Assembly (NCBI GenBank): GCA_001799675.1
Contig: MGTX01000016.1
Coordinates: forward strand, 9,876-73,875
Origin: Elusimicrobia bacterium GWA2_66_18
Lineage (GTDB): Bacteria; Elusimicrobiota; Elusimicrobia; UBA1565; UBA9628
Direction of reading: 5' to 3'
Length of the DNA: 64,000 bases
The translations under genes were made by a program, and so were the position numbers. The number at the start of each line of letters is the position of its first letter. The first letter of the stretch is position 1. Under the pieces are notes generated by a model, which searched no databases, was not told the DNA's origin, and worked only from the letters and a program-made list of their open reading frames with translations. Shown here piece after piece: positions 28,110 through 64,000 of the stretch.

Positions 28110-28880
28110 ATGCCCGGGCAACCGAACGGAGTCGCAGTCAACCTGCCGGTCCTCAACGAACGCGCAGCTCTTGAGATCGTGGTGCCCGCGATCATCCGGC
28201 AGCTCTGCGGCCGTCGACACACGCTCTGCGCCGTCGACGGTGGCTCGACGGACGGGACGGTCGAATTCCTGCGCGGCCTGGCTCAGGCCGGGGAGTCGAT
28301 CATCGTGATCGAGCGGCCCCGGCCGGGCCGGGGCTGCCAGCGCGGCGATGCTTCGCGGGCCGGGCTGGCCTGGCTCCTTGACCATACCGACCACGAGATC
28401 TTCGTGGATATCGACGGCGACGATTCTCAGCCTCCGGAGGAACTGGCTTCCGGCATCGCCATCCTCGAGTCGCCGGGCTGCGATGTGGTCATCGCGTCGA
28501 AATATGTTCGGGGTGCGGCCGTAACCGGGAGGCCGGTCGGTCGGCGGCTTGTCAGTCTCTTCTACAACGCGCTGGTCCGCGCGCTGGCAGGGACGGGACT
28601 GCGAGACCACAGCAACACCTACCGCTTCTACACGCGCCGGGCAGCCCGGCTGGCCATGCAGATCGACGCGCAGCACACGGGGCCGCTCTTCATGCTGGAG
28701 ATGCTGTTGCATTGGGTCTGCCAAGGGCTGAGCATCGTGGAGGTCCCGACTCGCTATCGGCCCCGGATCGGGGGGGAATCGAAGGTAGCCCTCGGGGACT
28801 TCGCCCTCGGCCTGTGGGGCGCGTTGCGGCTGGCGCGAAGGGCGCGGCTGCGTGGCTCTTCCATGGCGGGACGCTCCTGA
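28110..28880 (+). CDS. Family 2 glycosyltransferase (dolichyl-phosphate-mannose synthase-like)
   Basis: DGGSTDGT and DIDGDDS motifs. Start taken at ATG 28110 inside track ORF 27891..28880. The 3' end overlaps the convergent radical-SAM gene by ~127 nt. Confidence 0.65.
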   Translation: MPGQPNGVAVNLPVLNERAALEIVVPAIIRQLCGRRHTLCAVDGGSTDGTVEFLRGLAQAGESIIVIERPRPGRGCQRGDASRAGLAWLLDHTDHEIFVDIDGDDSQPPEELASGIAILESPGCDVVIASKYVRGAAVTGRPVGRRLVSLFYNALVRALAGTGLRDHSNTYRFYTRRAARLAMQIDAQHTGPLFMLEMLLHWVCQGLSIVEVPTRYRPRIGGESKVALGDFALGLWGALRLARRARLRGSSMAGRS

Positions 28881-30205
28881 CATTCGGCTGCCCGGCCGGC
28901 AGCGCTCGACCTCCTTCCAGAGTCATCGACCGGCGCCCGCAACGCTCCCAGACCAAAAAGGCGGGCATACGGCGCTGGAACGCCTAGGCAGCGACTGTCA
29001 TAGGGGCAGCGCCTGCAGGCTGGGTGTTTGGCGCGCCCGACCAAGCCGGCCTCCTCAGAGAAGTCCTCGGCGTAGCGCACCCGCTCCTGGGGCAGAGCCC
29101 GCTCCATCGCGTGACGCTGCGGATCATCCAGGAGGCAGGGCGGGAAGCCGCTCTCGCCGCCGAACGACGATACGCGCAGCCCCCACCGCAGGCAACGCTC
29201 GACCCCCCGGCGCAAAAACGGCGCCGCCCGGCCCAAATCAATCGCCCAAGTCGGAACCTTCAGGTGGCCGGCCTCGTTCATCATGGAGAAATAAACCTCC
29301 AGACGTCGATTCTTCGGCAAGCCGGCCCCCAAACCACCCAGGAAATCCGCCAGACCGGGAAGATGGCGGTAATTCCAGGCATTGACGACCACGTTCACCG
29401 TGACATCGAAATCGGCGCCGCCCCCTCGCGCCCTGACCAGTCGAACCAATCCCTCGACGGCGCGCCGATACTGGCCGCTGGTAGCCGTGATCCGATCATA
29501 CACCTGGGGCTTGTGCGAATGAAAAGAGACCAGATAATTGGCGACCCCGAGTTCCGTCAATCCCTTGATAAACCCCGACTTTGAAAGGAGGGCCCCGTTG
29601 GTCTGCAGGCCGATGCGCCGGAACCCCCTCTTGCGCGCAGCCTCTAAAATCCGAGGCAATCTTGGGTCCAGAGTCGGCTCGCCGCCCGAGATCGTCAACT
29701 GGCCGCGGAAATTGGGCTGGCGGGCCAGCGCCTCCAGTTTCCCTTCGATATCGGCCCAATCCGCGCCGCGGCCAGTCAGCGGCACGAAACAAAAAGGGCA
29801 GCGCTGGTTGCACGCCGACGTAACCCTCAACAACGATTGCGGACCTTCCTTGCCGAAATGCTTTTCCGCCAAGGCGGCGTCCGCCATCGCGACGGCGGGT
29901 CGCATGCGAAACGTTTCCACAAACAAAAGGAGCTCGCAAGCAAGCTCCGCCAAGCCCGCTTTCTCCGCGCTCCGCAGACGAGCCCCTGAACGCAACCGCG
30001 TCTGAAACCGGACGGACGGGGTGAGTGATCCGGCGCCATCGACAGAAAATTGCGGACTTAGATAAAAAAGAACTCGGGTCTCCGATGTCCTTCTCACTGA
30101 AAACCGCAGCAATCGCCCCGTCCCTTGTTTGTCGAGAACCCAATCATAACGGCGCAGAACGCCGCGCAGACCGGCAGAAACGATTTTTCTAGAACCCGAC
30201 GACAT
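28754..30205 (-). CDS. Radical SAM enzyme with SPASM/twitch-type Cys-rich C-terminal extension (rSAM-1)
   Basis: CNQRCPFC (CX3CX2C), SGGEPTL GGE motif and C-terminal CRRCPYDSRC. Start placed at the internal Met (MSSGSRK), giving a 17-nt overlap with the upstream gene; the track ORF extends to 30337. Confidence 0.7.
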   Translation of the reverse strand: MSSGSRKIVSAGLRGVLRRYDWVLDKQGTGRLLRFSVRRTSETRVLFYLSPQFSVDGAGSLTPSVRFQTRLRSGARLRSAEKAGLAELACELLLFVETFRMRPAVAMADAALAEKHFGKEGPQSLLRVTSACNQRCPFCFVPLTGRGADWADIEGKLEALARQPNFRGQLTISGGEPTLDPRLPRILEAARKRGFRRIGLQTNGALLSKSGFIKGLTELGVANYLVSFHSHKPQVYDRITATSGQYRRAVEGLVRLVRARGGGADFDVTVNVVVNAWNYRHLPGLADFLGGLGAGLPKNRRLEVYFSMMNEAGHLKVPTWAIDLGRAAPFLRRGVERCLRWGLRVSSFGGESGFPPCLLDDPQRHAMERALPQERVRYAEDFSEEAGLVGRAKHPACRRCPYDSRCLGVPAPYARLFGLGALRAPVDDSGRRSSAAGRAAECQERPAMEEPRSRALRASRNAPHRPRAKSPRATFDSPPIRGR

Positions 30206-32381
30206 TCTGCATATCCTTCCGCCATCTCCACGACGGCGAGGCGGCTTTAAGAGCGGCCACGCGGTCGCGTCGCGCCTCAGCGGTCCTACCGAGGGACTGC
30301 TGGGCATTGGCGCGCGCGGCCAGTACATCAGCCGCAAGATTCGGCCTATCCGGCTTGAACGTAAGCATGCGGTCGTAGCAGGAGATCGCTTCCAAACCGC
30401 GGCCCGATAAGTTCAGTATGGCTCCCAGGCTCAGCCAAGCCGAGATATTATTCCAATCGTACCTGATCGCCTTTCGGAATGCACCTTCCGCCTCGCTTCT
30501 ACGACCGGCGCTATAGAGAGAGATGCCCCAAATCACTGAGAGCTCAGCCTGCTGACGCAGCCACCCAACATGAACGCCGGACGGCTTGCCGGAACGATCT
30601 TCGTAGTAACCCCAGGGAGGCAGCAGATCCGGCGCATGGAGCCTCATATTGAGCGCGGCCCTTTGACTCAGCGGCGGGGGCCAGGAAAGAAGCAGAATCT
30701 CCATTTCGGCGTTCGTTCGGAGCACGGCAGCTCTGTTCAACTCACGCGTGCCGGCACGACCGGGACGCTGGACATCATTTCCTTCGAGACGGCGCCATTT
30801 TTCGAGTTGTTGACGGGCTTGCTTAACCTGATCCTTGGACAAATGGCACAAGATCGCCACGCGAAGCATTTCGTCCGGCCGCACGATCGCGGCCGGCTCC
30901 GGGAAGATGTCGGACTCCCGGCAATCCGCGCTATTGATTGCGTTGGCGGACGCAAGCAGCAAGGCCGCGCCGCGATTCCCGGGATCGAGCGCGACGCAAC
31001 GCCGCAAGGCCGTCGCCGCGTCGCGCGGGTTGTTTTGAGAAAGCAGATTCCGCCCCTGGTAACCCCATAACCACGACTCCGTCGGATGCAGGCGCAGCTC
31101 GCGCGCGAGAGCATCGGGAGCGGATGCGCGCGCCGGAAAAAGAGCGCAAAGCGCCAGGGCGAGAGAAACGACGACAACGACCGGCCCGCCGAACATGACG
31201 AACCATCTTCTCGGCCACAGAGAGCACGCCCCCGCGGGAGAGAATTTAATCAAGCCCGCCGCGGGAAGAACAGCCAGGACGGGCAAGATCGGAAATAGAT
31301 ATCTTCGCTCGATCGGGATGAGGAAATGCATGCCGCAGTAATAGGCCGCCAAACCCAGCAGAGAGCGCACAACCGGATCGCGCCAGCCGAGAGCCGCTCC
31401 GACGATCGTCGACGCAAACAGAATCGGAGACCACAACAGGACATGATGAATTCTCTTAAGAACGGAATGGAGATACCTCAGGGGATGCGCAAGCACCCAT
31501 ACGACGGCCGCCCGCAACGGCGCATCTTCCGAAGTGGCCCCGATGAGAGATCTCGCGTCCTCCAACACGGGCCCCGAGACCACCCCGGCCGCGCCGGCCA
31601 TGATGTTCGCATCCGCGCGTTTATTCTCCAGGAAAAGGAAATGATCTTGAACCCGGGAATTCAGATAGCCCCAAGGGAAGAGAACGATGAAAGGAATCCC
31701 CATGAGCAGCGCCGCCGTTCGAACCGCCTTCCGCCGCTCTTTGGCGCGAAGCATCTCCCATCCGGCGCACAAAGCCGGGTAAAAGAGGAGCGGGGAGAGC
31801 GTCGCCAGACTTATTCCCATCGACAATCCAAGGGCTTGGGTCGCCGTCCGGTTTTCGGTTTTAGCTCTCCAAGCCGCCGCAAATCCCACAAGGGCGATCG
31901 TCGCTTGGTAGAACCATCGATCCCCGAAAAAACCTTCCCAGGAACCCCCGAAAGAACTCGCAAAGAAACAATAGGCGCCCACGGCAAAGACTCCGCCAAG
32001 CCCTCCGGCCACGAAACGTCCCATGCCCGCGACGAGCGCGACCGTCAGGCCCAAAGCCGCCGCGGGAAACGCCAGTCCGCCTCTGCCTCGGTTTGGATGG
32101 CAGACCAACGCGTTGGATACGCTGTACGCGGGCATGCTCCATGAAAGCCGACGGTGCGGCAACCCATGAAGCAGGGCTTCCCCGGCCTCGACGTTTGCGT
32201 CATGGTCCTCCGCGCAATAAGCATCGCGCGAATAGGACGCCGCCGCATCCTTCAACACCATCGACAAACGAACGATGCCGAATGCAGCCGCGGCGATGAA
32301 TACGACCGCGACCCAACGATGGCCGCTCCTCGAATCGGAAACAGCCTGGATGGGCAGCCTCATGATCGACCCGCCATCCAT
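30189..32381 (-). CDS. Polytopic membrane protein with C-terminal TPR repeats
   Basis: About 12 TM helices in the first 420 aa, then TPR-like repeats. Resembles PMT/ArnT-type membrane enzymes fused to TPR. Confidence 0.55.
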   Translation of the reverse strand: MDGGSIMRLPIQAVSDSRSGHRWVAVVFIAAAAFGIVRLSMVLKDAAASYSRDAYCAEDHDANVEAGEALLHGLPHRRLSWSMPAYSVSNALVCHPNRGRGGLAFPAAALGLTVALVAGMGRFVAGGLGGVFAVGAYCFFASSFGGSWEGFFGDRWFYQATIALVGFAAAWRAKTENRTATQALGLSMGISLATLSPLLFYPALCAGWEMLRAKERRKAVRTAALLMGIPFIVLFPWGYLNSRVQDHFLFLENKRADANIMAGAAGVVSGPVLEDARSLIGATSEDAPLRAAVVWVLAHPLRYLHSVLKRIHHVLLWSPILFASTIVGAALGWRDPVVRSLLGLAAYYCGMHFLIPIERRYLFPILPVLAVLPAAGLIKFSPAGACSLWPRRWFVMFGGPVVVVVSLALALCALFPARASAPDALARELRLHPTESWLWGYQGRNLLSQNNPRDAATALRRCVALDPGNRGAALLLASANAINSADCRESDIFPEPAAIVRPDEMLRVAILCHLSKDQVKQARQQLEKWRRLEGNDVQRPGRAGTRELNRAAVLRTNAEMEILLLSWPPPLSQRAALNMRLHAPDLLPPWGYYEDRSGKPSGVHVGWLRQQAELSVIWGISLYSAGRRSEAEGAFRKAIRYDWNNISAWLSLGAILNLSGRGLEAISCYDRMLTFKPDRPNLAADVLAARANAQQSLGRTAEARRDRVAALKAASPSWRWRKDMQNVVGF

Positions 32382-34147
32382 ATCCTCCGCACGTAAGACT
32401 CCGAACGCCTGATGCCCTTGGCCATCTCCAATCCGGCCGTCAGAATTTTCCGCATCTCGGCGGGTCCAAAGGAGGAGCCCCGCGGCAACCCCAACTCGCC
32501 GCCGATAAAGGCAGTCACTTCCCGAGGGATAGCCGAAAAATCGGCCGCCAAGCCCTTCCCGTCGCGAATCAGAGCGCGGTTAAAATACGCCCAGAGGTTG
32601 TCGGGGGCCGACGCGATCACATGGTCAAGGTCCCGTATGCTCTCGTCATGCCGACCCATCACCCGGTAGACCTCGCCCCTCCATGCGCGCGCCTCGAAAT
32701 CCTTCGGGTCCAACTCGACGGCTAGATCGAGGTCCGCGAGCGCCTCATCGCGCCGCCCGAGTTTCCAAAGCGTCGCCCCGCGCCAGCCGTAGATGAAAGT
32801 CTGCGCCCCGAGCGCAACCGCCTCGTCAAGCATCTCCAGGGCCTTCTTGTACTCCCCCAGCCACAGGAATATCTCGCCGTTCCAGGTCAACACCTCCCGT
32901 CGGACGGTCGCGTCGCCGACCTTCCGGGCCCGCTCGAACTCGCGCAAGGCCTGCTCCTTATCGCCCTTGGCCAGGTAGGCCTCGGCCATGCGGCAGCGGA
33001 CCCACCAATGAGAGGGCGCGTGCCTGAGAATCCGCCGGGAGATCGCGATGGCTCCGTCGAAGTCCAGCATGCCGAGCTTGACTAAAATGCAGGACTGGCT
33101 CATCCATGAGTATCGAGGCGAGCCCGAGTCCTCGATGCTCTCATATTCGGCCATCGCCTCCTCGTCGCAGCCGCTGTCTCCAAGGAGGATGGCCCGATAA
33201 TAGGCGAACCAGCGGGAGAATTTTCCACCCTTGCTCGCGGCGCGGATGCGGCGGAGTTCCTCAGCGATGAAGCGATCCTCGACCACGGCCCGGCGGATCT
33301 CCCGCCACCACGGCCACATGAGCTGTCCGGGAGACTGAAAGCCTCCGAGTTGATCGAGCATCGCCTCGCCCAGACGGAAAGCGGCTCGATATTTCCTCGC
33401 GCACATGAGGGCGGAGAATATCTGGGGCCACTCGAGGACGAGCTTATCGGAGTGACCGGCCCGCGCCAGGCAGCCCAACAGCGCCCGTTCTACGGCGGGC
33501 GCGTAGCGCCCGAGCGCGATGAGCTCAAGAAGCGCCTCGATGCGGGAGTTTTCCGCCCCCTCCGCCCCGGCCCCGAACGCCGGGATGAGCGCCTCCTCCG
33601 CCGCCTTGAGCCGGCCCCTTGCGATCAGCACTTCCGTAAGCAGGATGCGAGCGCCCGGCTGCGGGACGACGCTGAGCACGGCGCGCATCGCCGCCTCGAT
33701 GCGATCTAGATTCTCGCCGTTTTGGATCACCCTCTCCACGAAAACGCGCCGGTACATATTAAATTCCATGAGTGCGTACAGACTCTTGCCCGCGTCCTCG
33801 CTGAAACCGCCGCGCAGTATAATGTCGCAGAGGAGATTGAGTTTACCTTCCGCCTGCGCCACCGTTTCCTTCAACACCTCGTAAGCCTCCGCCGAGCGGC
33901 CCGTCTTCTCTAGAAACCGGGAGAGTTCCACTCGCGGCAGCGGCGATGCGGGCTTAACGTCCAGGGCCTTACGGAAAACATTCTCGGCCTGCTCCAAACG
34001 CCCCCGGTTCTCCGCGATGCGCCCCAGCCAGATGAATACCTCCAAGACCGAGGTTCCGGCGGCCGCGGAGCGCCGCAAGGCCAGCGCTGCCTCCTTATGG
34101 CGTCCGGCCAGGACCAGAAGCTCGATCTCCGAAGGATCTCCATTCAT
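32360..34147 (-). CDS. TPR-repeat protein
   Basis: More than 10 tandem TPR units. Start at the second Met (ATG 34147), which gives an ATGA overlap with the upstream rSAM gene. Confidence 0.6.
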   Translation of the reverse strand: MNGDPSEIELLVLAGRHKEAALALRRSAAAGTSVLEVFIWLGRIAENRGRLEQAENVFRKALDVKPASPLPRVELSRFLEKTGRSAEAYEVLKETVAQAEGKLNLLCDIILRGGFSEDAGKSLYALMEFNMYRRVFVERVIQNGENLDRIEAAMRAVLSVVPQPGARILLTEVLIARGRLKAAEEALIPAFGAGAEGAENSRIEALLELIALGRYAPAVERALLGCLARAGHSDKLVLEWPQIFSALMCARKYRAAFRLGEAMLDQLGGFQSPGQLMWPWWREIRRAVVEDRFIAEELRRIRAASKGGKFSRWFAYYRAILLGDSGCDEEAMAEYESIEDSGSPRYSWMSQSCILVKLGMLDFDGAIAISRRILRHAPSHWWVRCRMAEAYLAKGDKEQALREFERARKVGDATVRREVLTWNGEIFLWLGEYKKALEMLDEAVALGAQTFIYGWRGATLWKLGRRDEALADLDLAVELDPKDFEARAWRGEVYRVMGRHDESIRDLDHVIASAPDNLWAYFNRALIRDGKGLAADFSAIPREVTAFIGGELGLPRGSSFGPAEMRKILTAGLEMAKGIRRSESYVRRIWMAGRS

Positions 34148-35208
34148 AATGGCGATAATTCCTCGAGCCCATAGAGATCCGCGTAAGTTTTCCACACCCC
34201 CTCGCAACGGTTACGGAAACGGCAACGAGCGCATTGCGGCGCGGCCGTCTTGAGGACGTTCTTCTTGACCTCCTGCCAGACGAATCGGTCCTGCATCGGC
34301 CCCTTCTTGGTGGCCATGCTCACATCGTTGGCTGGATCGAAGAGAGCTTCGTCGAGGTATTTCGCCGCCAGGAAGTCGCCCAGGCGGCCCGAGACGCCGG
34401 CCAACGTCAAAGCGCATCGCGGTACGCCGCCGAAGGACAGATGCCGGCCAAGCCTCTTCTCATTGAGCAGCATGATCCGAACGATCTCCGGCATGGCCTC
34501 CTTGAAGGAGGGAGTCCATGCCCGTTCGTTGCGAACGGCGCCTTGGGGCCAGATGTAATTAAAACGAATGTCGTCCAAGCCCAAGTCTCCAAAGAAGGCG
34601 ATGTATTTCTCCATCTCCCTCATAGTCGGGCGGCACAGGACCGGATTGAGCGAGATATTGTCCCTCAGACGCCCGTCACGCCTCAGGGCGAGAAGGTTTT
34701 TGACCGCCATGACCTTGCGGGAAAGATTGCCTGGAACACCCGTGATGAGCCCGTCCTCGACCTCGGGGCGGTGACTGTGGATGGAAAGGGTCGCGCGGGT
34801 GAGGCCGGCCTCGACGAGCCTGCGGCAGAAATCGGCGTCCGAGAGGCGCGTTGCGTTCGTGCAGATGGCGATGCGCTCGTAGCCGATGCCGCGAGCGCAA
34901 GCGATGCTTTCGATAATGTGCGGGTAAACGGTCGGTTCCCCCCCTAAAAAACCGGCGGCGCGGCAGCCCTTCTCGTAAAAGTGGCGGAGCTCCTCGCGAA
35001 CCCTCTCCGGGCTCGCCCAATCCTCCTGCTGATCGCGGTTGGCGCCGCTCATGCAGAATACGCAGAGGTTGTTGCAACGAGTGCCCAGGTGGACCTCGAT
35101 CCTTCGCAACTCGCCGAAAACCGCCGCCCGATTCGCTTTGTCGGAAGGAATCACCGCTCGGTCCCCTCCGGATGGATCAAAAGGGCGACGTCGGAGACGG
35201 ACTTCCAA
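34144..35208 (-). CDS. Radical SAM enzyme with SPASM/twitch-like C-terminus (rSAM-2)
   Basis: LGTRCNNLCVFC (CX3CX2C), FLGGEPT, C-terminal CARCRFRNRCEG; 354 aa. Confidence 0.8.
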   Translation of the reverse strand: MEVRLRRRPFDPSGGDRAVIPSDKANRAAVFGELRRIEVHLGTRCNNLCVFCMSGANRDQQEDWASPERVREELRHFYEKGCRAAGFLGGEPTVYPHIIESIACARGIGYERIAICTNATRLSDADFCRRLVEAGLTRATLSIHSHRPEVEDGLITGVPGNLSRKVMAVKNLLALRRDGRLRDNISLNPVLCRPTMREMEKYIAFFGDLGLDDIRFNYIWPQGAVRNERAWTPSFKEAMPEIVRIMLLNEKRLGRHLSFGGVPRCALTLAGVSGRLGDFLAAKYLDEALFDPANDVSMATKKGPMQDRFVWQEVKKNVLKTAAPQCARCRFRNRCEGVWKTYADLYGLEELSPL

Positions 35209-36848: not shown

Positions 36849-36864
36849 CGTGCCGCCGGCTCGT

Positions 36865-40443: not shown

Positions 40444-40454
40444 GTCTCCCCCTC

Positions 40455-43651: not shown

Positions 43652-43700
43652 GGCGAGATACGCTCCCTGGAGATAGGGGATGTTGATGCGGACTCCGATC

Positions 43701-50189: not shown

Positions 50190-50215
50190 ATGATAGCATT
50201 ATAAAGACTGCGGGA
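50190..50215 (-). promoter_or_regulatory. Putative -10 element (TATAAT on the minus strand at 50203..50198) upstream of the nitrogenase-like gene block
   Basis: Only AT-rich patch in the 148-nt gap between the methyltransferase gene and the NifD-like gene. Reverse complement reads TCTTTATAATG. Confidence 0.3.
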
Positions 50216-50260
50216 TGCCGGCTCAGAGAGCACGGAGTGCGCATCGACCGCCTGGCCCGC

Positions 50261-52935: not shown

Positions 52936-53025
52936 CCCATCTCCGCGGTGTCGCATCCGCCTTCCTGAAAAACGTCCGATCAACGGTCCCCTGCGCCCGT
53001 GAATATTTCTCAGCGCTGCACATGA

Positions 53026-54543: not shown

Positions 54544-54644
54544 AAGAGCATGAGAAAAAAAGCATATCCGCGTCGATCTTTCAAAAGAAATTATAGATCA
54601 TATGAAAGCGTTCGTCGGGGAAAAGGGACCCGGCTGAGTTATGG

Positions 54645-55535: not shown

Positions 55536-55612
55536 AGGCGCGGTAGAGTCCGACGATCGGGCGCTGCCGGCTCAGAGGCCGCGCCGTCGTCTCGATTGAG
55601 GGGGCTTGGCCC

Positions 55613-55912
55613 TTGCGCGTGAGTGCGCCGATAACCTTGAATGAGATGCGCTCGCTGTTGATCGAGCGGCCGACGGGGTCCCGGTCGCCGAATAGATTCG
55701 CGACGACGGCCGGCCCCAACAACGAAGCAGGAGAAATTGCGCGCAGAAACTCGGGTCTTGAATTATTCCGGGAGCTGGAGCTCGCCGGGAAAATGGGCGC
55801 GCGCTGCGTCGACGGCCTGTCCGAGAGCGACGTCACGCCGCTGAAGGCTTGGCCGGCGAGCCGGGGCGCGGCGGAGCACATCCACGCGCAGGAGGTCCTG
55901 TGCGGAAGATGA
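55613..55912 (+). CDS. Hypothetical 99-aa protein, translationally coupled (ATGA) to the downstream SGNH hydrolase gene
   Basis: ORF MRVSAPITLNEMRSLLIERPTGS...; its stop overlaps the ATG at 55909. No domain recognised. Confidence 0.3.
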   Translation: MRVSAPITLNEMRSLLIERPTGSRSPNRFATTAGPNNEAGEIARRNSGLELFRELELAGKMGARCVDGLSESDVTPLKAWPASRGAAEHIHAQEVLCGR

Positions 55913-57000
55913 CGCCGCTCGCCAGACTCGTCGCGGCGGGCGACCTCGCGCTCTCGGCCCTGGCCGCCTTTTTCGGGCTTCGCTTCCTCGTGATCGCGGT
56001 CTTTTTGGGCTCGATGACTGAGGGCCGCCTCCCGGCGGCGGGCTTCGTCCTCCTCACGGCGACGCCCTTCGCCTTGGCGGCGGCCTCCGTCGTTCTGCTC
56101 ATGGCCCAAGGCGTGTCGAGGACCAAGATTCTGGGGACCTGCGGGTCGTTCGGGGCGATCGGTCTTGCGCTCGCCCTATGGCCGGCCATGATTATGACCA
56201 ACCCGAATGATTTGGGGCTGGCCTCGCAAGGCGCAAATATCAGCTATGAGTTTGACTTTTCGCGCGACGCCAACAAGGATAACTACCCGCTGTGTCGCTA
56301 CCGGAACAACAGCCTCGGCTACCGTGATGAGGAACCGCCCGTCGCGCTCAAGAAGGGGGAGCGGCGAATACTGCTTGTCGGCGACTCGTACATCTGGGGC
56401 GACGGCATCCCCGTCAATGAGGAAACCCTTGCCTACCTTCTGCGTGCTGAGCTGGCACGGCTGGCGCCCGGGCGCTTCAGCGTGATGAGCGCGGCCTATC
56501 CCGGACTAGGGTTTTACGGCTACGGCCGGTTGATCGACGTGCTCTGCGCGCGCTACGACCCGGAGGTCGTCGTGGTGGGCTCTCTGGGCGAAAGCGACTG
56601 CGATCCCTTCGATGCCCAGTATCTGCTGGACCATCTTCCGCGTCTCTGGCTCGTCCGCAACCTGGTGCTGAACCTCGGGGCGGCTCAATATCTGCATGAG
56701 GCGTCGGTAAGCCGCTTCTCGCCGATATGGACCAGCGCCGAAAACCGGGAATACTTCGCGGCGTTGACGCGCGACTTTTCGCTGAAGGCGCTCGAGCGGG
56801 GTTATCGCCTGATGTTCCTGTCCTACTTCCCTCACCCGTCGCTGCCGGAAGGCATCGAGACGCTGGATCTGCCCGAGGACCTGCGCTACCCGTGGCATGC
56901 CAGCGACCTTTGGTACGCCAAGGACTTCCATCCCAAGACGAAGCTCAATCGCATCCTGGCAAAAATGATCGCCGAGAAGATCATCCAGAAGGGGCTCTAA
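55909..57000 (+). CDS. Membrane-anchored SGNH/GDSL-family hydrolase
   Basis: Three N-terminal TM helices, then LLVGDSYIWGDG (GDS-x block I). Confidence 0.6.
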   Translation: MTPLARLVAAGDLALSALAAFFGLRFLVIAVFLGSMTEGRLPAAGFVLLTATPFALAAASVVLLMAQGVSRTKILGTCGSFGAIGLALALWPAMIMTNPNDLGLASQGANISYEFDFSRDANKDNYPLCRYRNNSLGYRDEEPPVALKKGERRILLVGDSYIWGDGIPVNEETLAYLLRAELARLAPGRFSVMSAAYPGLGFYGYGRLIDVLCARYDPEVVVVGSLGESDCDPFDAQYLLDHLPRLWLVRNLVLNLGAAQYLHEASVSRFSPIWTSAENREYFAALTRDFSLKALERGYRLMFLSYFPHPSLPEGIETLDLPEDLRYPWHASDLWYAKDFHPKTKLNRILAKMIAEKIIQKGL

Positions 57001-57036
57001 TGCAAAAGATTTTAGTATATTACCTATACTTTACCA

Positions 57037-59982
57037 ATGAACCGGGACGAAGGCATCGTGCTCATCGAGTTCGTCGCCCTGGGACGATTTAATGTCGCCG
57101 GCGAATTCCCGTTCATCCACGCCTGGCTGAAACACAGCTTGCATATTCCCGTCTTGTGGGTGCGTTTCGCGCTCAATCCTGATGTGCGTTTCGGCAGCCG
57201 CGAAAGCGGAATCAGCTTAAAAACCGCCGATATGGGAGCCCTCCTCAAACTGGTCCGCAATTGCGCAGCAAGACGAGCGCTTTTTAACTTTCAGCCGTCG
57301 GCGTCTCTATGGCGGAAGTTCCAGTCGGAGCATCCGCGGGTCGATGGCCGTTTTTTCTCAAGTGGGAATGCGGCGCAAGACGGGAGAGGATCGAAACGTC
57401 TGCGGCCTCTGCGGCAGGACGGCCAAACGTTGGTGCGCTGGCTGGGTCTTAAAACCGAAGAAGTGAAATCCTCCTATATGGCGGAAAAGCCCGATTTTGG
57501 CTTCATCGCGGGAAACCGTGAAGCTCGGATGATGCAGCCACTGGCGTTCGTCCACGGCGGACAGGAGTGCGTCTATCGCAAGAGTGTCGTTGGCAACCCG
57601 GCCTACGCGGGCGTCGACCTCACGGGCGCTAGGACCGAGGGATGCGCTTTCTGCGTCAGCGGGGCCGGCGTCGGCGCCGACCAACCTCGCCGCGCTCCAA
57701 CCGTCGAGGACGCGTTGCGTCAGATCGATGCATTCTTCCGCACGTATCCACTGCACGACGTCCGTTCGCGCCCTAGGCTGAGGATGTCGGGGCAACAGCT
57801 GCTCCTTGAGGTCGAAACGCTGACCGCACGCATGTCTCAACTCGATTTTCCCCCCTGCGACCTGCTGTTTGACGCGCGCATAGACTACCTGCTGAAGTTA
57901 AAGGACCGATTAGCGGGGTCGGCCAAGCGCCTGAAGGGCACCGGCCACAAAGTCCATATCTGTCTTGTCGGATTGGAGAATTTTTCGTTCTCCGAGCTTC
58001 AACGGATGAACAAGGGAATCACCCCGGCCCAGAGCCTTGCCGCGATCCGCATTCTGCGAGACATTGAACGAGCCTACCCGGAAGAATTCGGCTTTGAGGA
58101 ACACGGCGGTCTTTCGACTATTTTTTTTACGCCCTGGACCACGCTCGATGACCTGGCTCTGAACTTCTCCATCGTAAGCCATTTCCGACTCGAGAGCCTA
58201 TGCGGAAAGAGACTGACGTCACGGGTCCGGCTCTACGATGGGTTGCCTCTGACGGCTCTCGCCCGGCACGACGGGCTCATCGTCAACCGCTATGACGACG
58301 CAACGTTCGACACGGCACGGCTTAATTTCTACCCCGATGAGATCAAATGGAGATTCAAACATCCGGAGGTGTCGCAGATCAATCGGATCACGCTGCGCAT
58401 GGACGTCAATCCGGCCCTTGAGTCAGACCCCTTGTATGCGCGCGTGCAATCATGGCTCAAGACGACGATCGCCGCCGGCGCCTCTCAGGCGCAGTGCATC
58501 GTGGACCTCGTCGGCCGCGCGCTGTCGCACCGCGGCCCCGTCACAGCCGAGGCGCTGCTGGAGCCGCCGGCAGAGAAACCGCCATTGGAATTGTCGAATC
58601 TTTCGATGCCGGATATAGAACCCACGAAAAGCCTTCTCCTGAAGCTGAAGTTACAGCGCGCCGGCTTCGCCAGCGTCAGTCGTCTGGAGCACCTGGATCC
58701 CGAGTCGGCCGAACGGCTTGGCCGGCAACTGAGAGAGAAAGGCGGCGAGGTCATCGTCGTGCCGCGGCGCCAAGGAGACGCCTCCAAAAAAACGTGGGAT
58801 GTTTTTTTCGGCCCGCGCTCCGGCGATGTGGCGGAGGCGGCCCGTTTAACGAACGTGCAATACGCCTCAGCGAGTAATACTAAGACGAGCGCCGCCAAGC
58901 GGCGCATTGGGGAGTTGTACGGCTATCCTAAGTGTTGCGCCCGAGCCTTCGCCTCGTTTCGTTGTTCCTCGCCTTACTTGAACGAGTGGATGATCCTGCT
59001 TCGTCGCTGCGAACATCCGGGGCCGATCGACCCGCTCCTCAATCCATTTTCCGGTCACGTCATCTATGTCCCCTGTTCGGTGCGCTGCCAAACGAGCATC
59101 CGGCGCTCCCGAGAGCTCCTCAAACTGTCCTCCCGCGCGTCTCATGACCCCGTGAAGGCCTCGCTTAAACATCCCTTTTTATTTCTCCTCGACCGGATCG
59201 GGGAATATGTCGAGTTGATCCCGCAGGGAGCGGTGAGCGGGAGTTTTGATTTTATAGCCGGGGTCATTAAAGGGCATGATCCAGAGCTTCTCGCCCTGGC
59301 CGGGGGCGGGACAATCACCATCGCCGAAGGGATCATCGTTGTCCACCGCGATGGCGTGCGGGTGGCAAGCTTTATAATGCGGGCGGCGGTCTGGTGGCAT
59401 CAGCAGGCCTTCGACTTTGAGTTCTGGCGCGAGTGTTCCGCGGAAATTCTTGAGCGTCTTCCCGAGACGACGCGCCCCTCGGAAACCGTTGAGCCGGTTT
59501 CCAGGCCTCCCGCAAAGCCTCCCCCCCAAGCCGCTGAAGCGAAAAAAGAGAAGCCTCCCGCGCCGCAGAAGACGACGGCCGCAGTCGACACAGCTTGGCG
59601 CCTATTTCTGGCCGACTTGGATGCCCAGTTTCACCGCAGCCAGCACAGCCCCTGCCGAAGCCGTTATGACGGAGAGATTCTGTCCGTGTCTTTGGGGAAC
59701 AAGAGTTTGCCCCTGTTCCCGGTCTCGAAGGATTCGCCCTGCAGCGCCTACTATGCGCAGACCCCCAACTTTTACATCTGCATCCGCGGCAAGAGCAAGA
59801 TGTCGGATTCAGAGCAGCGCCATCTGCGGATCTATCTGGAGATGCTGTCTCAACGTGATGAGCTGCTCAAAGTCCTCCTCCGTTCCGCAAAAATTTCGGG
59901 CGCACATTCCGCCAAAATCCGCCTCACCCGAGCGGCGCAACCCGGCCCTCCCCGAACGCGGATGCCTCCAGAGCGTTCCTGA
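57037..59982 (+). CDS. Radical-SAM-like protein with non-canonical Cys motif (paralog 3; 981 aa with a Cys-rich C-terminal extension)
   Basis: GGQECVYRKSVVGNPAYAGVDL...GCAFC, GLENFSFSELQRMNKGIT, FTPWTTLDD, KWRFKHPE. Extra C-terminal ~450 aa including YGYPKCCARAF...CSVRC. Confidence 0.55.
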   Translation: MNRDEGIVLIEFVALGRFNVAGEFPFIHAWLKHSLHIPVLWVRFALNPDVRFGSRESGISLKTADMGALLKLVRNCAARRALFNFQPSASLWRKFQSEHPRVDGRFFSSGNAAQDGRGSKRLRPLRQDGQTLVRWLGLKTEEVKSSYMAEKPDFGFIAGNREARMMQPLAFVHGGQECVYRKSVVGNPAYAGVDLTGARTEGCAFCVSGAGVGADQPRRAPTVEDALRQIDAFFRTYPLHDVRSRPRLRMSGQQLLLEVETLTARMSQLDFPPCDLLFDARIDYLLKLKDRLAGSAKRLKGTGHKVHICLVGLENFSFSELQRMNKGITPAQSLAAIRILRDIERAYPEEFGFEEHGGLSTIFFTPWTTLDDLALNFSIVSHFRLESLCGKRLTSRVRLYDGLPLTALARHDGLIVNRYDDATFDTARLNFYPDEIKWRFKHPEVSQINRITLRMDVNPALESDPLYARVQSWLKTTIAAGASQAQCIVDLVGRALSHRGPVTAEALLEPPAEKPPLELSNLSMPDIEPTKSLLLKLKLQRAGFASVSRLEHLDPESAERLGRQLREKGGEVIVVPRRQGDASKKTWDVFFGPRSGDVAEAARLTNVQYASASNTKTSAAKRRIGELYGYPKCCARAFASFRCSSPYLNEWMILLRRCEHPGPIDPLLNPFSGHVIYVPCSVRCQTSIRRSRELLKLSSRASHDPVKASLKHPFLFLLDRIGEYVELIPQGAVSGSFDFIAGVIKGHDPELLALAGGGTITIAEGIIVVHRDGVRVASFIMRAAVWWHQQAFDFEFWRECSAEILERLPETTRPSETVEPVSRPPAKPPPQAAEAKKEKPPAPQKTTAAVDTAWRLFLADLDAQFHRSQHSPCRSRYDGEILSVSLGNKSLPLFPVSKDSPCSAYYAQTPNFYICIRGKSKMSDSEQRHLRIYLEMLSQRDELLKVLLRSAKISGAHSAKIRLTRAAQPGPPRTRMPPERS

Positions 59983-60004
59983 GTCGCCGGGAGAAAACAA
60001 CGAC

Positions 60005-61993
60005 ATGCGCCTGATGCTGATCGAATTCTTTCGAGGAGCTCTCCGCCGCAACGAGCGGAGCATGATCTTCCCGTTCCTCAAGGGACTGGCGCGGGAGCGC
60101 GGCTTCAAGACGCTCTGGCTCTGCTACGGGGGAGACATGGCGCATCAGGACGGCGCCGCCGTGGGACGCACGCTCTTCGCCGCGCTGCCGGACGAGGACC
60201 TTCGTTCGCTCGCCCGGCGCCTGGAGCGATTTCGCCCCAGCCACGTGGTGACCAGCGACCGCATGAGCCGCGGGGCGACGGAAATCCTAGCGTCGCGCAC
60301 GCCGCCGCCTAAGCATCTCGTCATGCCGCTGACAGACGAACTGCCGGGAGGCTACGATCAGCGCGGCGACTTCGCCCATTGCGGCTGGTTTCTCGACTGG
60401 CTGGGCTGCGGTGATCCTGCGGCCTCTCGGCGCTACATCGCCGAGCATCCCGCCCCCGATTACTCCGCCGTGCTGGCCAACAAGGCTGCGCGCCGCGCTA
60501 AGCCGCAGATCACTATCGTCAGCGGGACGCTGTGCGCGTATCGGCGCACTTTGGCGGGCAACCCGTATTTCGAAGACGTAAACCTCGGCGGGGAGGCTCA
60601 TCGAGGATGTTCATTCTGCTTGTGCTCGACCATCCCCCCCGTCACGGCGCCGCAAACGCCGATTCTACCCCTCATAGAGACCCAGTTCCGAAGGATATTG
60701 CAGACCGCCGGCAAGGCCGGCCGGAACAAGGGTCGCTACGAGTTCTTCGACATCCGCGCGTTCTGGAAGTTCGACGAGCTCTTTCAGCTCCTCCTGCGCC
60801 TGAAGGTGCCTCCGTCGATATTCCTCTTCAATCCCCGCATCGACGACGTCCTTCGCCAGCGCGTCCGCATCGAGCGCGTCCTGCCGGCGCTGGCGAAAGC
60901 CGGCCATCAGGTCCGGATGCTGAGCATGGGCGTGGAAAACTTTTCCGAGAACGAAAACGCGCGCTTCAACAAGAGGATCGTCCTGGAGCAGGTGGATGAG
61001 TTCCTCGCCATGACGAAGGAATGGGAGAGCGCCTATCCCGGCGTCTTCCGGCCCTTCAAAGCGGGAAACGCCGCCGCCGAACTCGGGTTCATCCTGTTCA
61101 CCCCTTGGACGACTCTCGCCGACGTCCGCGTCAACCTGGACGCCGCGACCTCCCGAGGCTTCCCCAACTGCGGCTACTGGCTGTATTCGATCCTGCTCCT
61201 CGATTCCGCGACTCCCATATTCCACTTGGCGGAGAAGGAAGGGGACGTGCTGACAGACCGGTTCCCGGACCCCGGTCAGTTTTACGGATTGTTCAAGAAC
61301 GAAGGGCAACTCGAGGATGTGCGCCCCTGGCGCTTCAAGGACGCGAAAGTCGCGGATTATTTCGCCCTGCTTGTGCGCGTCTGCGCCGCCGAGCGTGAGG
61401 GGAAAGACTGCGCCCATTTCCGCGACGACCCTGTTTTCTCCCTGGCCGAGCGCCTCTACCGTGAGGCGAACGAACCCCCTGCCGCCGCGACCAAACCGCT
61501 GCAGATCGCATTCTCCCTGCTCGAACTGATGGAAACGGCGCGCCCGCCTTTCTGCCGCGAGACGCTTCTCCAGGAGGCCGTCGCCCGCGCGGCGGCGCTC
61601 ACGGCGGCGCGGCGCGCGGCGTCCGCGCCTCCGCCCCCGCTCTCCGTCAGGGGCAAAGCCATCGAGCGCGTCGTGGACCTGCTGCGCGCCGCCCGCCCCG
61701 GGATGTTCGCCGGCATGGAGTTCGAGTCAGTCCGGGAAGTCGTCCTGCGGGGCTCGCGCAGCATTCTTCTCACCTTATCGATGTCCGGCCGGAAGCTGGT
61801 CGTGGCTCTACGGGACGCGCGTTCCCATAAGCCGTGTTTTCTCCGGTCGCGCCGATTCCGGGCCTCTTATCTTAAGGATTCGCCCACCCCCTCGCCACGC
61901 GAGCGCCAGCAACTAGCGCAGCTCCTCCGTCTCCTCGACGCCGGCGTCAGTCGCCGAGAATCTCCTCGGGCAGGCGGCCGAACTTCGTCTTGA
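60005..61993 (+). CDS. Radical-SAM-like protein with non-canonical Cys motif (paralog 4)
   Basis: Start at MRLMLIEFF (ATG 60005), which aligns with the N-termini of the other paralogs. SGTLCAYRRTLAGNPYFEDVNL...GCSFC, GVENFSENENARFNKRIV, FTPWTTLAD, PWRFKD. The track ORF from 59417 is an upstream artefactual extension. Confidence 0.55.
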   Translation: MRLMLIEFFRGALRRNERSMIFPFLKGLARERGFKTLWLCYGGDMAHQDGAAVGRTLFAALPDEDLRSLARRLERFRPSHVVTSDRMSRGATEILASRTPPPKHLVMPLTDELPGGYDQRGDFAHCGWFLDWLGCGDPAASRRYIAEHPAPDYSAVLANKAARRAKPQITIVSGTLCAYRRTLAGNPYFEDVNLGGEAHRGCSFCLCSTIPPVTAPQTPILPLIETQFRRILQTAGKAGRNKGRYEFFDIRAFWKFDELFQLLLRLKVPPSIFLFNPRIDDVLRQRVRIERVLPALAKAGHQVRMLSMGVENFSENENARFNKRIVLEQVDEFLAMTKEWESAYPGVFRPFKAGNAAAELGFILFTPWTTLADVRVNLDAATSRGFPNCGYWLYSILLLDSATPIFHLAEKEGDVLTDRFPDPGQFYGLFKNEGQLEDVRPWRFKDAKVADYFALLVRVCAAEREGKDCAHFRDDPVFSLAERLYREANEPPAAATKPLQIAFSLLELMETARPPFCRETLLQEAVARAAALTAARRAASAPPPPLSVRGKAIERVVDLLRAARPGMFAGMEFESVREVVLRGSRSILLTLSMSGRKLVVALRDARSHKPCFLRSRRFRASYLKDSPTPSPRERQQLAQLLRLLDAGVSRRESPRAGGRTSS

Positions 61994-62085
61994 ACCAGCG
62001 CAGGCAACATTCACGAACGCATATGTTACCATGAACTCCCAATGGACATCGCCCACGGCCGATGATCGCTCGCACGCCGGAAAAG

Positions 62086-64000
62086 TTTGTTTTTTTTCGG
62101 TAAGGGTGGGAGCGGCAAGTCGACCCTTTCGTCGAACCTGAGCGCGATTTACGCCCGCTCCGGCTTGAGCGTCTTGCATGTCGGCTGCGACCCCAAGCGC
62201 GACTCGACCGTCCTGCTCGTCGAGCGCCCCAAAGCCAGGACGATCCTGACCCCGCGGGGAGAATATCTCGGGATCGCTCCGGCATCGGAGTTCCTGATGC
62301 GCAGCCGTCTCGGGCTGGACTGCATCGAGGCCGGCGGACCTGAGCCGGGAGTCGGGTGCGCGGGCCGGGGAATCAGCAAGATGATCGAGGTCCTCCAGCG
62401 GGATCGAATCATCGAACGCGGGGGCTATGAGATCGTCGTCTTTGACGTGCTGGGAGACGTGGTCTGCGGCGGCTTCGCCGCGCCCCTGCGCCTCGGGTTC
62501 GGCGAAAAAGTCGTGATCGTCGTAAGCGAGGAGGCGATGTCGCTTTACGCCGCCAACAACATCGCGCATGCGGTCCGCAACTACGCGTCCAACGGCGTCG
62601 GACTCTGCGGTCTCCTCGCCAATCTCCGCGACCCCGCCGCCGACATCGGACTCATCGAGCGCTTCGCGCGCCGCATCGGCACCACGCTTGTTGGAGTCGT
62701 GAGCCGTGATCTCGCCTTCCGCGAAGCGGAATACCGCGAGCGCTGCCTGACGGAGATCGCGCCGCGCTCGAAAGCCCTGCGAAATCTAGAGAGGATCGCC
62801 AAGCGACTGCGGACCTCGGATCGACGCAAGCTCACGGCACCGACGCCCTTAACTGAATCCGAATTCTACGAAGCAAGCCGCCGCCGCTTCACCTTCAATG
62901 GGCGACGGCGTCCGGTCCCCGCGGTGTCCGTTGCGGCTCCGACCCCCGGCGGGACGGCCGGCCCGCCCGCAGAGCCTGCGCCTACGCGACCCGAGCGCCC
63001 GGCCGGGCCTCCAGGCACGCCAACGCCGGCGGCAGAGGAAGGCGCGGCGTCGGGCCGGCCCCCTCCCTATAGCCGCTGGATGATGTGGACGTGGGGCGTG
63101 GACGAGCAGTGGCGCCAATTCTTCGCGAACCCGGAGCTTGAACTCCTTTCGGCAAAACCGCTCTTGCGCAATGTCGCCTACGTCGTGCAGAAGGAGTTGG
63201 AGTGTTTCTTCGTCGAGGCGCGAACCGACGATGGAAGCGCGAATTTTTTCAACCACCCCTGGCCCGATCATTGCTCGGCCGGCCTGCCCCTTGCCTCCGA
63301 ACTCAGGCAGCTCGGCTGCCGCCAGATCGTATCCGACATCAAGGACGGTGAGATCATCCTCGGCGGCGCCCGAAAGCTGGAAACGGTCATGTCCGGCCTC
63401 GTCCGGGAACCGGGCGCGACCGAGTTGACGGTATTCCTCACCTCGTGCCCCGCGGTCGTCATTGGCGACGATAATGCCTCGGTCATCGAGCGCTTCCGTC
63501 TCCGGTCGGGCCTCCCCACCCTCTTCCCCGATCGCGATGCGGACCAGCACACGGACCTGCTGGGGGACCTCTTCACGCTCGCGTGCAAAAGAGGCCGACC
63601 GGCCTCTAAACCGGAGGGCCCCCGCCTCAACCTCGTCGGCTTCCCCCGGGACCGCACCCTCGTCGAGCTGACCCGGCTGCTCGGCGACCTGGGAATTACG
63701 GTCAACAGCTGCCTGCTTCCCGAGTTCGACCTCGAGAGCATCTCCCGCTATCGGGACGCCGATCTCCAGGTCGTGAGGCCTCACCGCGCCTACGAGGGGG
63801 TCCAGGCGGAGATCCTCGATAAACTCGCGATCCCGACGCTCCTCATCGAGCCCCCCTACGGGATGGGAGGCGCCCGCCGTTGGTTGAGCGAGATCGCGAA
63901 GTTTTTCGATCTCCAAAACCGCTGCGAGGAACTCTGGGCCGAGCGATGGTCGGGATCTCGGCAAAGGTGGGAGGCGCTGAGGCGTCGAGCGTGCGACCAC
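62086..64000 (+). CDS. Fourth NifH-like ATPase fused to a NifD-like domain (second HD fusion). Partial: continues beyond the window end
   Basis: Manual translation: (TTG)FFFGKGGSGKSTLSSNL...CDPKRDST...GVGCAGRGI...DVLGDVVCGGFAAP, then a Pro/Ala-rich linker and a WMMWTWGVDEQWRQFF block paralogous to the 38143..40443 linker/NifD domain. No ATG in frame; the start is either TTG 62086 or the ATG at 62061 after a shift within the T8 homopolymer. Confidence 0.7.

Follow-up and report, generated by a model that had tools for sequence, protein, structure and literature searches.

All characterized relatives of nitrogenase that operate with a simple cluster (DPOR, COR, and CfbCD) act on tetrapyrroles (Méheust et al. 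2020; PMC13474568). A further branch of the superfamily, Group VI, was described from lineage IV genomes in which several nifH/D/K copies adjoin many radical S-adenosylmethionine (SAM) genes, and it was predicted to make a novel cofactor by reducing a tetrapyrrole (Méheust et al. 2020, ISME J / bioRxiv 10.1101/765248). The reaction and the cofactors of Group VI are listed as unknown in a review of the field (Chem Rev 2026, PMC13474568, section 7), and our literature search returned no later functional work on this group. Here we analyzed a 64,000-nucleotide stretch of Elusimicrobia bacterium GWA2_66_18 (contig MGTX01000016.1; hereafter the window), which from position 28754 to its end carries a supercluster of nitrogenase-like (Nfl) genes. 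This locus is the published Group VI supercluster of this same genome and is therefore a rediscovery of an already known system, since both genome and system appeared in print in 2020 and were covered by a review in 2026. The explanation we favor, to which we assign a probability of roughly 60%, is that four divergent ATP-dependent reductases, together with the neighboring radical-SAM and methyltransferase enzymes, would form one tailoring pathway.

The window proteins are 100% identical to proteins of Elusimicrobia bacterium GWC2_65_9 / GWA2_66_18, recovered from Rifle groundwater. The NifH-NifD fusion of the first gene set (NflHD1) matched OGR47819.1, OGR76925.1 (Elusimicrobia bacterium GWA2_66_18), and HAZ08198.1 at 100%, and its gene sits on MGUH01000008.1 (GCA_001799875.1) as well as on a 191.6-kb Rifle scaffold. 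In the genome table of Méheust et al. 2020, GCA_001799875 bears the name 'Elusimicrobia bacterium GWC2_65_9', and Table S3 of that study scores it 0 for nitrogenase groups I to V, 1 for the new paralog group VI, 1 for uroporphyrinogen III synthesis, and 0 for cobalamin synthesis. The Group VI placement is the tree-based, genome-level scoring of those authors, linked to the window by protein identity. The locus itself displays the Group VI features, namely, conserved NifH motifs, divergent D/K subunits with at most 4 of the 6 P-cluster cysteines and no ligands of the iron-molybdenum cofactor (FeMo-co), and radical-SAM neighbors. We found no difference in kind from the published Group VI systems, which likewise retain the NifH motifs, have strongly diverged NifD/K with no more than four cysteines at P-cluster positions, and lack NifB. 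An earlier note on this DNA, made from the sequence alone, had pointed to nitrogenase paralogs with radical-SAM neighbors in Elusimicrobia, and indeed this genome was scored as Group VI (Méheust et al. 2020). The note was also right in calling the system unlike any characterized one, the function of Group VI being unknown (Chem Rev 2026); an undiscovered system it is not, as it was published in 2020. Within the accessible text of Méheust et al. 2020 and the Chem Rev 2026 review, neither the H-D fusion nor the large radical-SAM family without a name is mentioned, and the same holds for the resemblance of the TP_methylase domain to RsmI, for the anchoring of some members in the membrane, and for the disruption of nflK4, all described below.

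The gene set was compiled from Pfam and NCBIfam scans of long open reading frames (ORFs), self-tblastn, and public gene calls on identical contigs. Between 28754 and 64000 it comprises four NifH-like, four NifD-like, and three NifK-like units, five twitch/SPASM radical-SAM genes, and four large radical-SAM paralogs with a noncanonical C-x24/25-C-x2-C motif, all in the numbers first proposed, as well as two methyltransferase domains, two tetratricopeptide repeat (TPR) proteins, and one Sel1 domain. Set 1 consists of NflK1 (36865-38142; Oxidored_nitro, 4.4e-39) and NflHD1 (38143-40443; 766 aa), which carries Fer4_NifH (1.1e-79, residues 2-265) and Oxidored_nitro (residues 414-682) in one ORF. 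Set 2 is composed of NflK2 (42368-43651; Oxidored_nitro, 1.3e-33), NflD2 (43701-45392; Oxidored_nitro), and the free-standing ATPase NflH2 (45467-46297; Fer4_NifH, 1.9e-81), and set 3 of the divergent, also free-standing ATPase NflH3 (46294-47151; Fer4_NifH, 4.6e-62), NflK3 (47171-48385; Oxidored_nitro), and NflD3 (48382-50112; Oxidored_nitro, 1e-24). All these genes are on the minus strand. The homology between NflK2 and NflK1 detected by tblastn reaches approximately position 43687, upstream of the called NflK2 start (43651). The gene probably begins slightly farther upstream than annotated. Set 4 begins on the plus strand with a second fusion, NflHD4 (62087 to beyond 64000), which is 40% identical to NflHD1 over both domains by tblastn and runs off the window; on a contig stretch that extends further (L008), it is full length with 768 aa.

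Complete reductase sets could be demonstrated for three only, the lower end of the three to four sets that had been claimed. The K gene of the fourth, nflK4, lies outside the window (L008 14382-15703, window-equivalent 64386-65707) and is disrupted by an in-frame stop codon in place of a Leu of the ortholog and by a frameshift. Possibly set 4 is in decay, or it makes use of a different K subunit.

All four NflH retain the P-loop, switch I, switch II, and the equivalents of Cys97 and Cys132. They scored 207 to 279 bits against the nifH model TIGR01287 (cut-off, 394), 219 to 277 bits against the CfbC model (cut-off, 402), 158 to 195 bits against BchL (cut-off, 345), and 132 to 178 bits against BchX (cut-off, 331). 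NflH2 matched CfbC at 276.6 and nifH at 276 bits, both under the cut-offs (402 and 394). The identity of NflH3 to the other NflH copies (38 to 41%) is about as low as that to NifH (35%), and this protein is missing from a syntenic Elusimicrobia locus (L002). According to the earlier note, membership in the bona fide NifHDK or Bch families, or a loss of the cluster-binding cysteines, would speak against its reading; we observed neither, as no protein reaches the NifH, BchL, BchX, or CfbC cut-offs and the cysteines are kept in NflH, NflD, and NflK.

While NflH2 and NflH3 are free-standing, the other two NifH-like units are not the separate proteins they had been taken for: in NflHD1 and NflHD4, a complete NifH-like domain is joined to the D domain via a Pro/Ser/Glu-rich linker of roughly 100 residues. 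An assembly artifact is implausible, because NflHD1 is encoded in identical form on 12 contigs, independent metagenomes contain more than 100 homologs with both domains, and the D4 ortholog is unfused in another metagenome-assembled genome (MAG; locus L016). Homologs of NflHD or NflK number approximately 2,700 proteins at an E value of ≤1e-10. Across 39 H-D fusions with identities as low as 36%, the P-loop and the switch I/II residues are invariant, as are two H-cluster cysteines and two D cysteines (C95, C131, C368, and C452 in NflHD1). The myxobacterium Pseudenhygromyxa sp. WMMC2535 (GCA_011083025.2; L010 10001-14322), apparently an isolate, encodes a 970-aa H-D fusion next to a K subunit that is 37% identical to NflK1; this pair lies on a 9.5-Mb contig (JABJWV010000001.1, positions 6785644-6789965) with zero radical-SAM genes within 10 kb. 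A still larger fusion was seen at another locus (L017 10001-14674), where a NifH-NifH-NifD protein with two P-loops and two Cys97/Cys132 sets is accompanied by a K-like gene. Both genes are embedded in a Peripla_BP_2/FecCD/ATP-binding cassette (ABC) importer operon, a transporter type for the uptake of iron chelates, heme, and B12. The K protein of this locus is closer to BchZ/NifE than to NflK, and the H-H-D system is probably a different clade from Nfl.

The D and K subunits were aligned to NifD/E/K/N and BchY/Z sequences, taken from a reference set of NifHDKEN and BchXYZ from annotated plasmids. In every NflD, the Cys88 and Cys154 equivalents are kept and the Cys62, Cys275, and His442 equivalents are absent. 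The Cys95 equivalent is present in all 15 NflK sequences examined, and the Cys70 equivalent is absent. NflK1, NflK2, NflK4, and their orthologs retain the Cys153 equivalent; in NflK3, DFHELVG replaces PMCSITG and this cysteine is lost, as it is in the L002 ortholog. The tally for each D/K pair is hence 2+2 cysteines (2+1 in set 3), with no FeMo-co ligands. This ligand pattern indicates that a D/K pair holds a single predicted inter-subunit [4Fe-4S] cluster and not a P-cluster plus FeMo-co, and the same simple-cluster view of Group VI is taken in the Chem Rev 2026 review (PMC13474568). Because the ligands of only one [4Fe-4S] cluster are kept and those of FeMo-co are missing, we infer a mechanism of the DPOR/COR/CfbCD type; judging from the protein sequences, the sets most likely work like these enzymes rather than like nitrogenase.

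Membership in any of the described groups was nevertheless rejected. Bona fide nitrogenase (Groups I to III) does not fit, with the nifH score under the cut-off, Cys275 and His442 absent, the P-cluster cysteines incomplete, and nifB/E/N not found. With DPOR (BchLNB/ChlLNB) and COR (BchXYZ), the Nfl sets share an ATP-dependent NifH-like reductase, a NifD/K-like partner, and an apparently single inter-subunit [4Fe-4S] cluster without FeMo-co. However, the Nfl ligands are 2+2 cysteines instead of 3 cysteines plus an Asp, there are four sets instead of one per step, some H and D units are fused, and no bch/chl context surrounds them; Group V was rejected since the curated scores are far under the cut-offs (at most 49 bits for Nfl D/K against BchN/B/Z, with cut-offs of 420 to 529; the 49 bits are those of NflD3 against DPOR_bchN) and no bch/chl genes were found in the window. 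CfbCD (Group IV-B) is similar in being a simple-cluster reductase of a cofactor pathway, and NflH fits the CfbC model as well as it fits NifH. Unlike CfbD, which needs no K subunit, each Nfl D has an adjacent K; the cluster has no cfbA/B/E-like genes, the CfbC scores are under 402, and the host is not a methanogen. For the D domain of NflHD1, the best score was obtained with NifE (54.5 bits). In agreement with what had been noted before, no nif accessory (nifB/E/N), bch/chl, or chelatase genes, and likewise no hem or cob genes, were found among the window ORFs scanned, a few of which gave no Pfam match.

The paralogs within the cluster are 38 to 55% (H), 21 to 34% (D), and 33 to 44% (K) identical, whereas orthologs of sets 1 to 3 in other Elusimicrobia MAGs are 60 to 97% identical. 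The Nfl duplications are therefore old and have been retained, and the divergence suggests that each set may serve a different step. NflD2 and NflD3 additionally carry N-terminal extensions of approximately 130 to 150 aa (44883-45392 and 49543-50112) with a strand-strand-strand-helix arrangement, resembling the C-terminal domain of the large radical-SAM proteins big1 and big4; in direct comparison of these domains, BLAST gave no match and hhalign a probability of 14.7%. The small genes of approximately 120 aa in GWA2_69_24, considered as relatives of these extensions, turned out to be unrelated.

The five canonical radical-SAM enzymes have CX3CX2C within their first 40 residues (starting at 13 to 39) and a C-terminal CX2CX5C. 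These are rSAM-A (28754-29905, minus strand; 383 aa; twitch/SPASM type; Pfam Radical_SAM, 1.3e-17; CX3CX2C at 32-39 and CX2CX5C at 297-306), the twitch-type rSAM-B (34144-35154, minus strand), rSAM-C (35151-36848, minus strand; Pfam Radical_SAM and TP_methylase), the SPASM-type rSAM-D (40455-42371, minus strand), which has two CX2CX5C motifs, a transmembrane helix (375-402), and Sel1 repeats (1.3e-44), and the twitch-type rSAM-E (54672-55535, plus strand; 287 aa; Radical_SAM in the public gene call). Their best NCBIfam matches were HxsC4/HxsC, MoaA, TrsS, viperin, Tes, AhbD, and NirJ, and since all scores are three- to fivefold under the cut-offs, no family assignment is justified. rSAM-B, for instance, aligns distantly but at full length with HxsC4 (NF038332; 120.7 bits, cut-off 500; residues 15-335 on model positions 12-334/335), and its orthologs in two other loci (L001 and L002) are 71 to 73% identical; rSAM-E has HxsC/HxsC4/AhbD-type matches, again far under the cut-offs.

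The four large paralogs, big1 to big4, are 29 to 36% identical to each other and share an invariant C-x24/25-C-x2-C. On the minus strand lie big1 (50887-52914; 35% identical to big4, with a weak Radical_SAM match of 3e-4) and the shorter big2 (53026-54339), and on the plus strand lie big3 (57037-59982), with a C-terminal extension of approximately 400 aa that includes a weak DUF483-like stretch, and big4 (60005-61993). None of them contains a Pfam domain above threshold, and no match to the B12-binding (PF02310) or UPF0004 (PF00919) domain was obtained. A model of big4 built from a 38-sequence alignment (predicted local distance difference test score [pLDDT], 90.7) has an N-terminal Rossmann-type domain and a radical-SAM barrel, as do class B (cobalamin-dependent) enzymes and methylthiotransferases. 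Unlike RimO, MiaB, MgmA, TsrM, CysS, and OxsB, which carry CX3CX2C, the big proteins have C-x24-C-x2-C; their sequence identity to these enzymes is 10 to 15%, their Radical_SAM match is under threshold, and they do not possess the conserved N-terminal cysteines of the methylthiotransferase-type auxiliary cluster. In a profile search of 1.84 billion representatives, we found 608 members at an E value of ≤1e-30 and 989 at ≤1e-3. The big proteins are thus a small, sharply bounded, rare, and unnamed family with a class-B/methylthiotransferase-like radical-SAM fold. In an Elusimicrobia MAG, a single ORF of 1,114 aa (P0131, HYV14_14300) joins a big4-like part to an NflD3-like part (an ortholog). It may be a genuine fusion or an artifact of gene calling, and this joining hints, in the manner of a Rosetta-stone protein, at a physical coupling of big and NflD.

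At the other end of the window, positions 3729-7948 hold a corrinoid-dependent methyltransferase module. It is made up of a corrinoid protein (3729-4406, minus strand), a Met_synt_B12 activation-domain protein (4373-5089, minus strand), an MttB-family methyltransferase (5125-6573, plus strand), and an amino acid permease (6347-7948, plus strand). Corrinoid import is presumed, because the genome was scored as being without cobalamin synthesis, and the supply of corrinoids would be relevant if the class-B-like radical-SAM enzymes need cobalamin.

Of the accessory functions proposed by the earlier note, the TP-methylase-like domain, the methyltransferase, and the TPR/Sel1 proteins were recovered. 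The TP_methylase domain fused to rSAM-C (35151-35900; PF00590, 43.5 bits) had RsmI as its only superfamily match (TIGR00096, 64.6 bits; NF011570), and its best PDB match was RsmI 5hw4 (1e-7), followed by 9pzg and RsmI-like structural-genomics proteins. RsmI is a ribose 2'-O-methyltransferase. A tetrapyrrole C-methylase of the CobA/CysG/CbiL type was consequently rejected, RsmI being the closest subfamily. In two other loci (L001 and L002), this methylase is encoded as a stand-alone protein. The class-I SAM methyltransferase (50261-50785, minus strand; 174 aa; Methyltransf_31/MTS/PCMT) gave weak PCMT, FxLD, and CbiT matches, far under the cut-offs. By transmembrane and hydropathy scans, three cluster proteins are membrane anchored: rSAM-D, TPR1, and a 363-aa protein. 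TPR1 (30189-32363, minus strand) joins a polytopic membrane domain (approximately seven hydrophobic segments in residues 1-420) to TPR Pfam matches at 424-705. Its membrane domain, which may be speculated to be GT-C-like, had no Pfam match even at an E value of ≤5, only 5 homologs were found among 5.8 billion proteins, and its AlphaFold2 model is unusable (pLDDT, 48). TPR2 (32360-34147, minus strand; 595 aa) consists entirely of TPRs (TPR_19, 4.6e-25, and 20 other TPR models). The 363-aa protein (55909-57000, plus strand) has two N-terminal transmembrane helices and had been labeled an SGNH hydrolase, a label we dropped because it is backed by a GDS motif only, with no Pfam or PDB support. An 88-aa ORF without a Pfam match (55646-55912, plus strand) overlaps it by 4 bp.

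Many gene junctions show such a 4-bp overlap or a gap of <20 bp, so that the genes form operons. Two of these diverge from a 332-bp intergenic region (54340-54671). The minus-strand operon reads big2, big1, methyltransferase, NflD3-K3-H3, NflH2-D2-K2, rSAM-D, NflHD1, NflK1, rSAM-C, rSAM-B, TPR2, TPR1, and rSAM-A, and the plus-strand operon reads rSAM-E, 88-aa ORF, 363-aa protein, big3, big4, and NflHD4. The divergent region contains no sigma-70 consensus match, terminator, or convincing small ORF, and Rfam gave no match in the whole window and none in the divergent region at an E value of ≤1. TPR1 and rSAM-A are separated by 283 bp, and within this gap a terminator-like hairpin (29948-29929, minus strand; 8-bp stem and T-run) lies upstream of rSAM-A, which may be a separate transcript; terminator-like sites in the region are not more numerous than by chance.

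The cluster had been bounded at 28754 and 64000, but it does not end there. The L008 stretch corresponds to window-equivalent positions 50005-71993, and the cluster extends for 8 kb or more beyond the window, reaching window-equivalent position 71993 or further. Beyond nflK4 follow a 266-aa unknown protein, a PapB-like radical-SAM enzyme, another twitch radical-SAM enzyme, and, on the minus strand (L008 18623-21989), a 1,181-aa fusion of a ferredoxin-like part, a TobZ/NodU-type carbamoyltransferase, and a radical-SAM part. Radical-SAM-type genes hence number nine within the window and three just past its end, and the twitch/SPASM enzymes among them number five and seven, respectively, without and with those just outside. 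In a deltaproteobacterial MAG (L018), a carbamoyltransferase gene was likewise seen beside a big-family gene, together with Peptidase_U32.

Under the favored explanation, the locus would encode four anciently diverged two-component ATP-dependent reductases. The NifH-like ATPase would dimerize around a bridging [4Fe-4S] cluster and pass ATP-gated single electrons from the H cluster to the D/K cluster, which in turn would hand them directly to an organic substrate at the D/K interface. Hard-to-reduce conjugated bonds could in this way be reduced in 2e-/2H+ steps, with different sets probably assigned to different steps. Being translationally coupled with the radical-SAM enzymes and with the RsmI-like and class-I methyltransferases, the reductases would belong to one multistep reductive and radical tailoring pathway toward a single metabolite or cofactor, partly organized at the membrane.

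Several observations weigh against this explanation. H-D plus K pairs occur without radical-SAM neighbors in Pseudenhygromyxa and in another Elusimicrobia MAG, so the reductase is not strictly tied to the radical-SAM set; as big-family genes also occur without Nfl nearby, the modules are separable. The disruption of nflK4 is identical in two independent assemblies. Since NflD/K are only 14 to 20% identical to NifD/K, the ligand equivalences rest on short motifs. The Fe protein acts as a dimer, and an H-D fusion provides one H per D/K half, which fits poorly with the docking of an H2 dimer known from nitrogenase and leaves a puzzle of stoichiometry. In the probably different clade of L017, the H-H-D triple fusion offers a solution to it. 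Finally, biochemical evidence for Group VI is absent from the literature (Chem Rev 2026, PMC13474568).

As for the substrate of such a pathway, a tetrapyrrole-derived macrocycle would be the single most likely class by analogy, if still a doubtful choice when taken by itself. Tetrapyrrole precedents exist for both class B and SPASM radical-SAM enzymes. Moreover, the characterized simple-cluster relatives all use such substrates, and this genome was scored as able to make uroporphyrinogen III (Méheust et al. 2020, Table S3). Against a tetrapyrrole, the methylase domain is RsmI-like, and chelatase, hem, and cob genes were not found among the scanned window ORFs. In addition, of the 22 Group VI genomes, 5 have the complete route to uroporphyrinogen III, 5 have part of it, and 12 lack it, and cobalamin synthesis is found in none (0/22; Méheust et al. 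2020). The tetrapyrrole argument for Group VI is thus weaker than commonly stated. The first of the two hypotheses in the earlier note, which coincides with the published guess, is affected in the same way: the idea stands as a proposal, but the support cited for it was weakened by the RsmI-like methylase, the missing chelatase and hem genes, and the 12 of 22 genomes without uroporphyrinogen III synthesis.

The same genomes, most of which lack tetrapyrrole precursor synthesis, would agree better with a small molecule of another kind, such as a nucleoside or sugar cofactor or antibiotic, a quinone or other aromatic compound, or a membrane lipid, which the radical-SAM enzymes would remodel and the Nfl sets reduce before the product is handled at the membrane. 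We regard this alternative as unlikely, yet worth keeping in view. The RsmI-like domain points to ribose 2'-O-methylation; the fusion of TobZ/NodU-type O-carbamoyltransferase, radical-SAM, and ferredoxin parts lies just past the window, and a carbamoyltransferase recurs beside a big gene in L018. MoaA, viperin, BlsE, DesII, and Tes are among the radical-SAM matches, and three proteins (TPR1, rSAM-D, and the 363-aa protein) are membrane anchored. However, these family matches are all weak and generic, genes for sugar-nucleotide, polyprenyl, or quinone biosynthesis are absent inside the operons, and the substrate range of every characterized simple-cluster enzyme, as stated above, speaks for a tetrapyrrole.

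Distinctly less probable is a pathway of the ribosomally synthesized and posttranslationally modified peptide (RiPP) type, the second hypothesis of the earlier note, in which a peptide or protein would receive cross-links or methyl groups from the radical-SAM enzymes and the Nfl sets would reduce the modified residue. In favor of it, the best NCBIfam matches are peptide maturases, HxsC4/HxsC for five enzymes and PapB (129 bits) just past the window, and the small methyltransferase matches PCMT and the FxLD-system methyltransferase. Yet the family scores are three- to fivefold under the cut-offs, and MoaA, viperin, AhbD/NirJ, and Tes score similarly. The cysteine motifs, moreover, start at residues 13 to 39, and the alignments start at positions 77 to 101 of the maturase models, so that an N-terminal peptide-recognition domain or RiPP recognition element would not fit. 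Peptide-binding repeats are fused to radical-SAM enzymes (Sel1 here, HEAT in GWA2_69_24), but no plausible precursor ORF was found in any intergenic gap on the operon strands. Elsewhere, proteases flank H-D/K pairs (a Peptidase_S13 gene overlapping nflK in L015 and a trypsin-like gene upstream in L010), and a big-family gene lies beside two ABC exporters and a trypsin-like protease (L019); a protease and an exporter are absent from the present cluster. The peptide-maturase-like matches and repeat fusions speak for this second hypothesis; a precursor gene, recognition element, protease, and exporter were not found in the cluster, although a precursor may be encoded elsewhere. We know of no nitrogenase-like enzyme that acts on a peptide, and a literature search for such enzymes in RiPP pathways gave nothing.

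NifEN is a paralog of NifDK, and NifH has maturation roles, so that one could imagine NflDK as NifEN-like scaffolds on which NifB-like radical-SAM enzymes and NflH assemble a novel metallocluster for another enzyme. Although the NflHD1 D domain scored best against NifE (54.5 bits) and, in the accessible text of PMC11423573, other NFL systems pair with a NifB-like radical-SAM enzyme, this is very improbable, since the complex-cluster ligands (Cys275 and His442 equivalents) are absent, Pfam detected no NifX/NifB-type domain in the window proteins, NifB homologues are absent from Group-VI-only genomes (PMC13474568), and the cluster holds no candidate recipient metalloenzyme.

The remaining part of the window contains genes of other kinds. 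Genes for a GT2 protein and UDP-glucose dehydrogenase (26836-28880) lie on the opposite strand, convergent to the cluster, and an ORF with a DDE_5 transposase domain (2386-3786) is found near the window start. A minus-strand signaling block (15945-21968) encodes a hybrid histidine kinase, a response regulator, a PAS histidine kinase, a response-regulator/cyclase, and a GAF/HD-GYP protein, with no evident link to the Nfl cluster. Two ORFs (11242-12996, 584 aa; 25079-26839, 586 aa) show a strong coding-type bias in GC content at third codon positions and have no Pfam match.

Among the major branches of the nitrogenase superfamily, only Group VI has no assigned reaction, and each solved branch has yielded distinctive chemistry, namely, N2 fixation, ring reduction in chlorophyll and F430 synthesis, and C-S bond cleavage. 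With four reductase sets and approximately 12 radical-SAM enzymes, the product of the favored pathway is probably a heavily reduced, alkylated, and so far undescribed molecule. Set 1 (NflHD1 and NflK1) is a compact two-gene unit suited to heterologous expression, and Pseudenhygromyxa sp. WMMC2535, a cultured carrier of an H-D plus K pair, could serve as a tractable genetic host. On a reading that we hold to be somewhat less likely than not, the tethered NifH-NifD proteins and the class-B-like family (approximately 600 clusters) build a new cofactor or metabolite that is not a tetrapyrrole, maybe nucleoside, sugar, lipid, or peptide derived and handled at the membrane. If this is true, nitrogenase-like chemistry would reach a new class of substrates, and the H-D fusion, in which every D/K half has a single H bound to it covalently, would represent a new way of operating the Fe-protein cycle.

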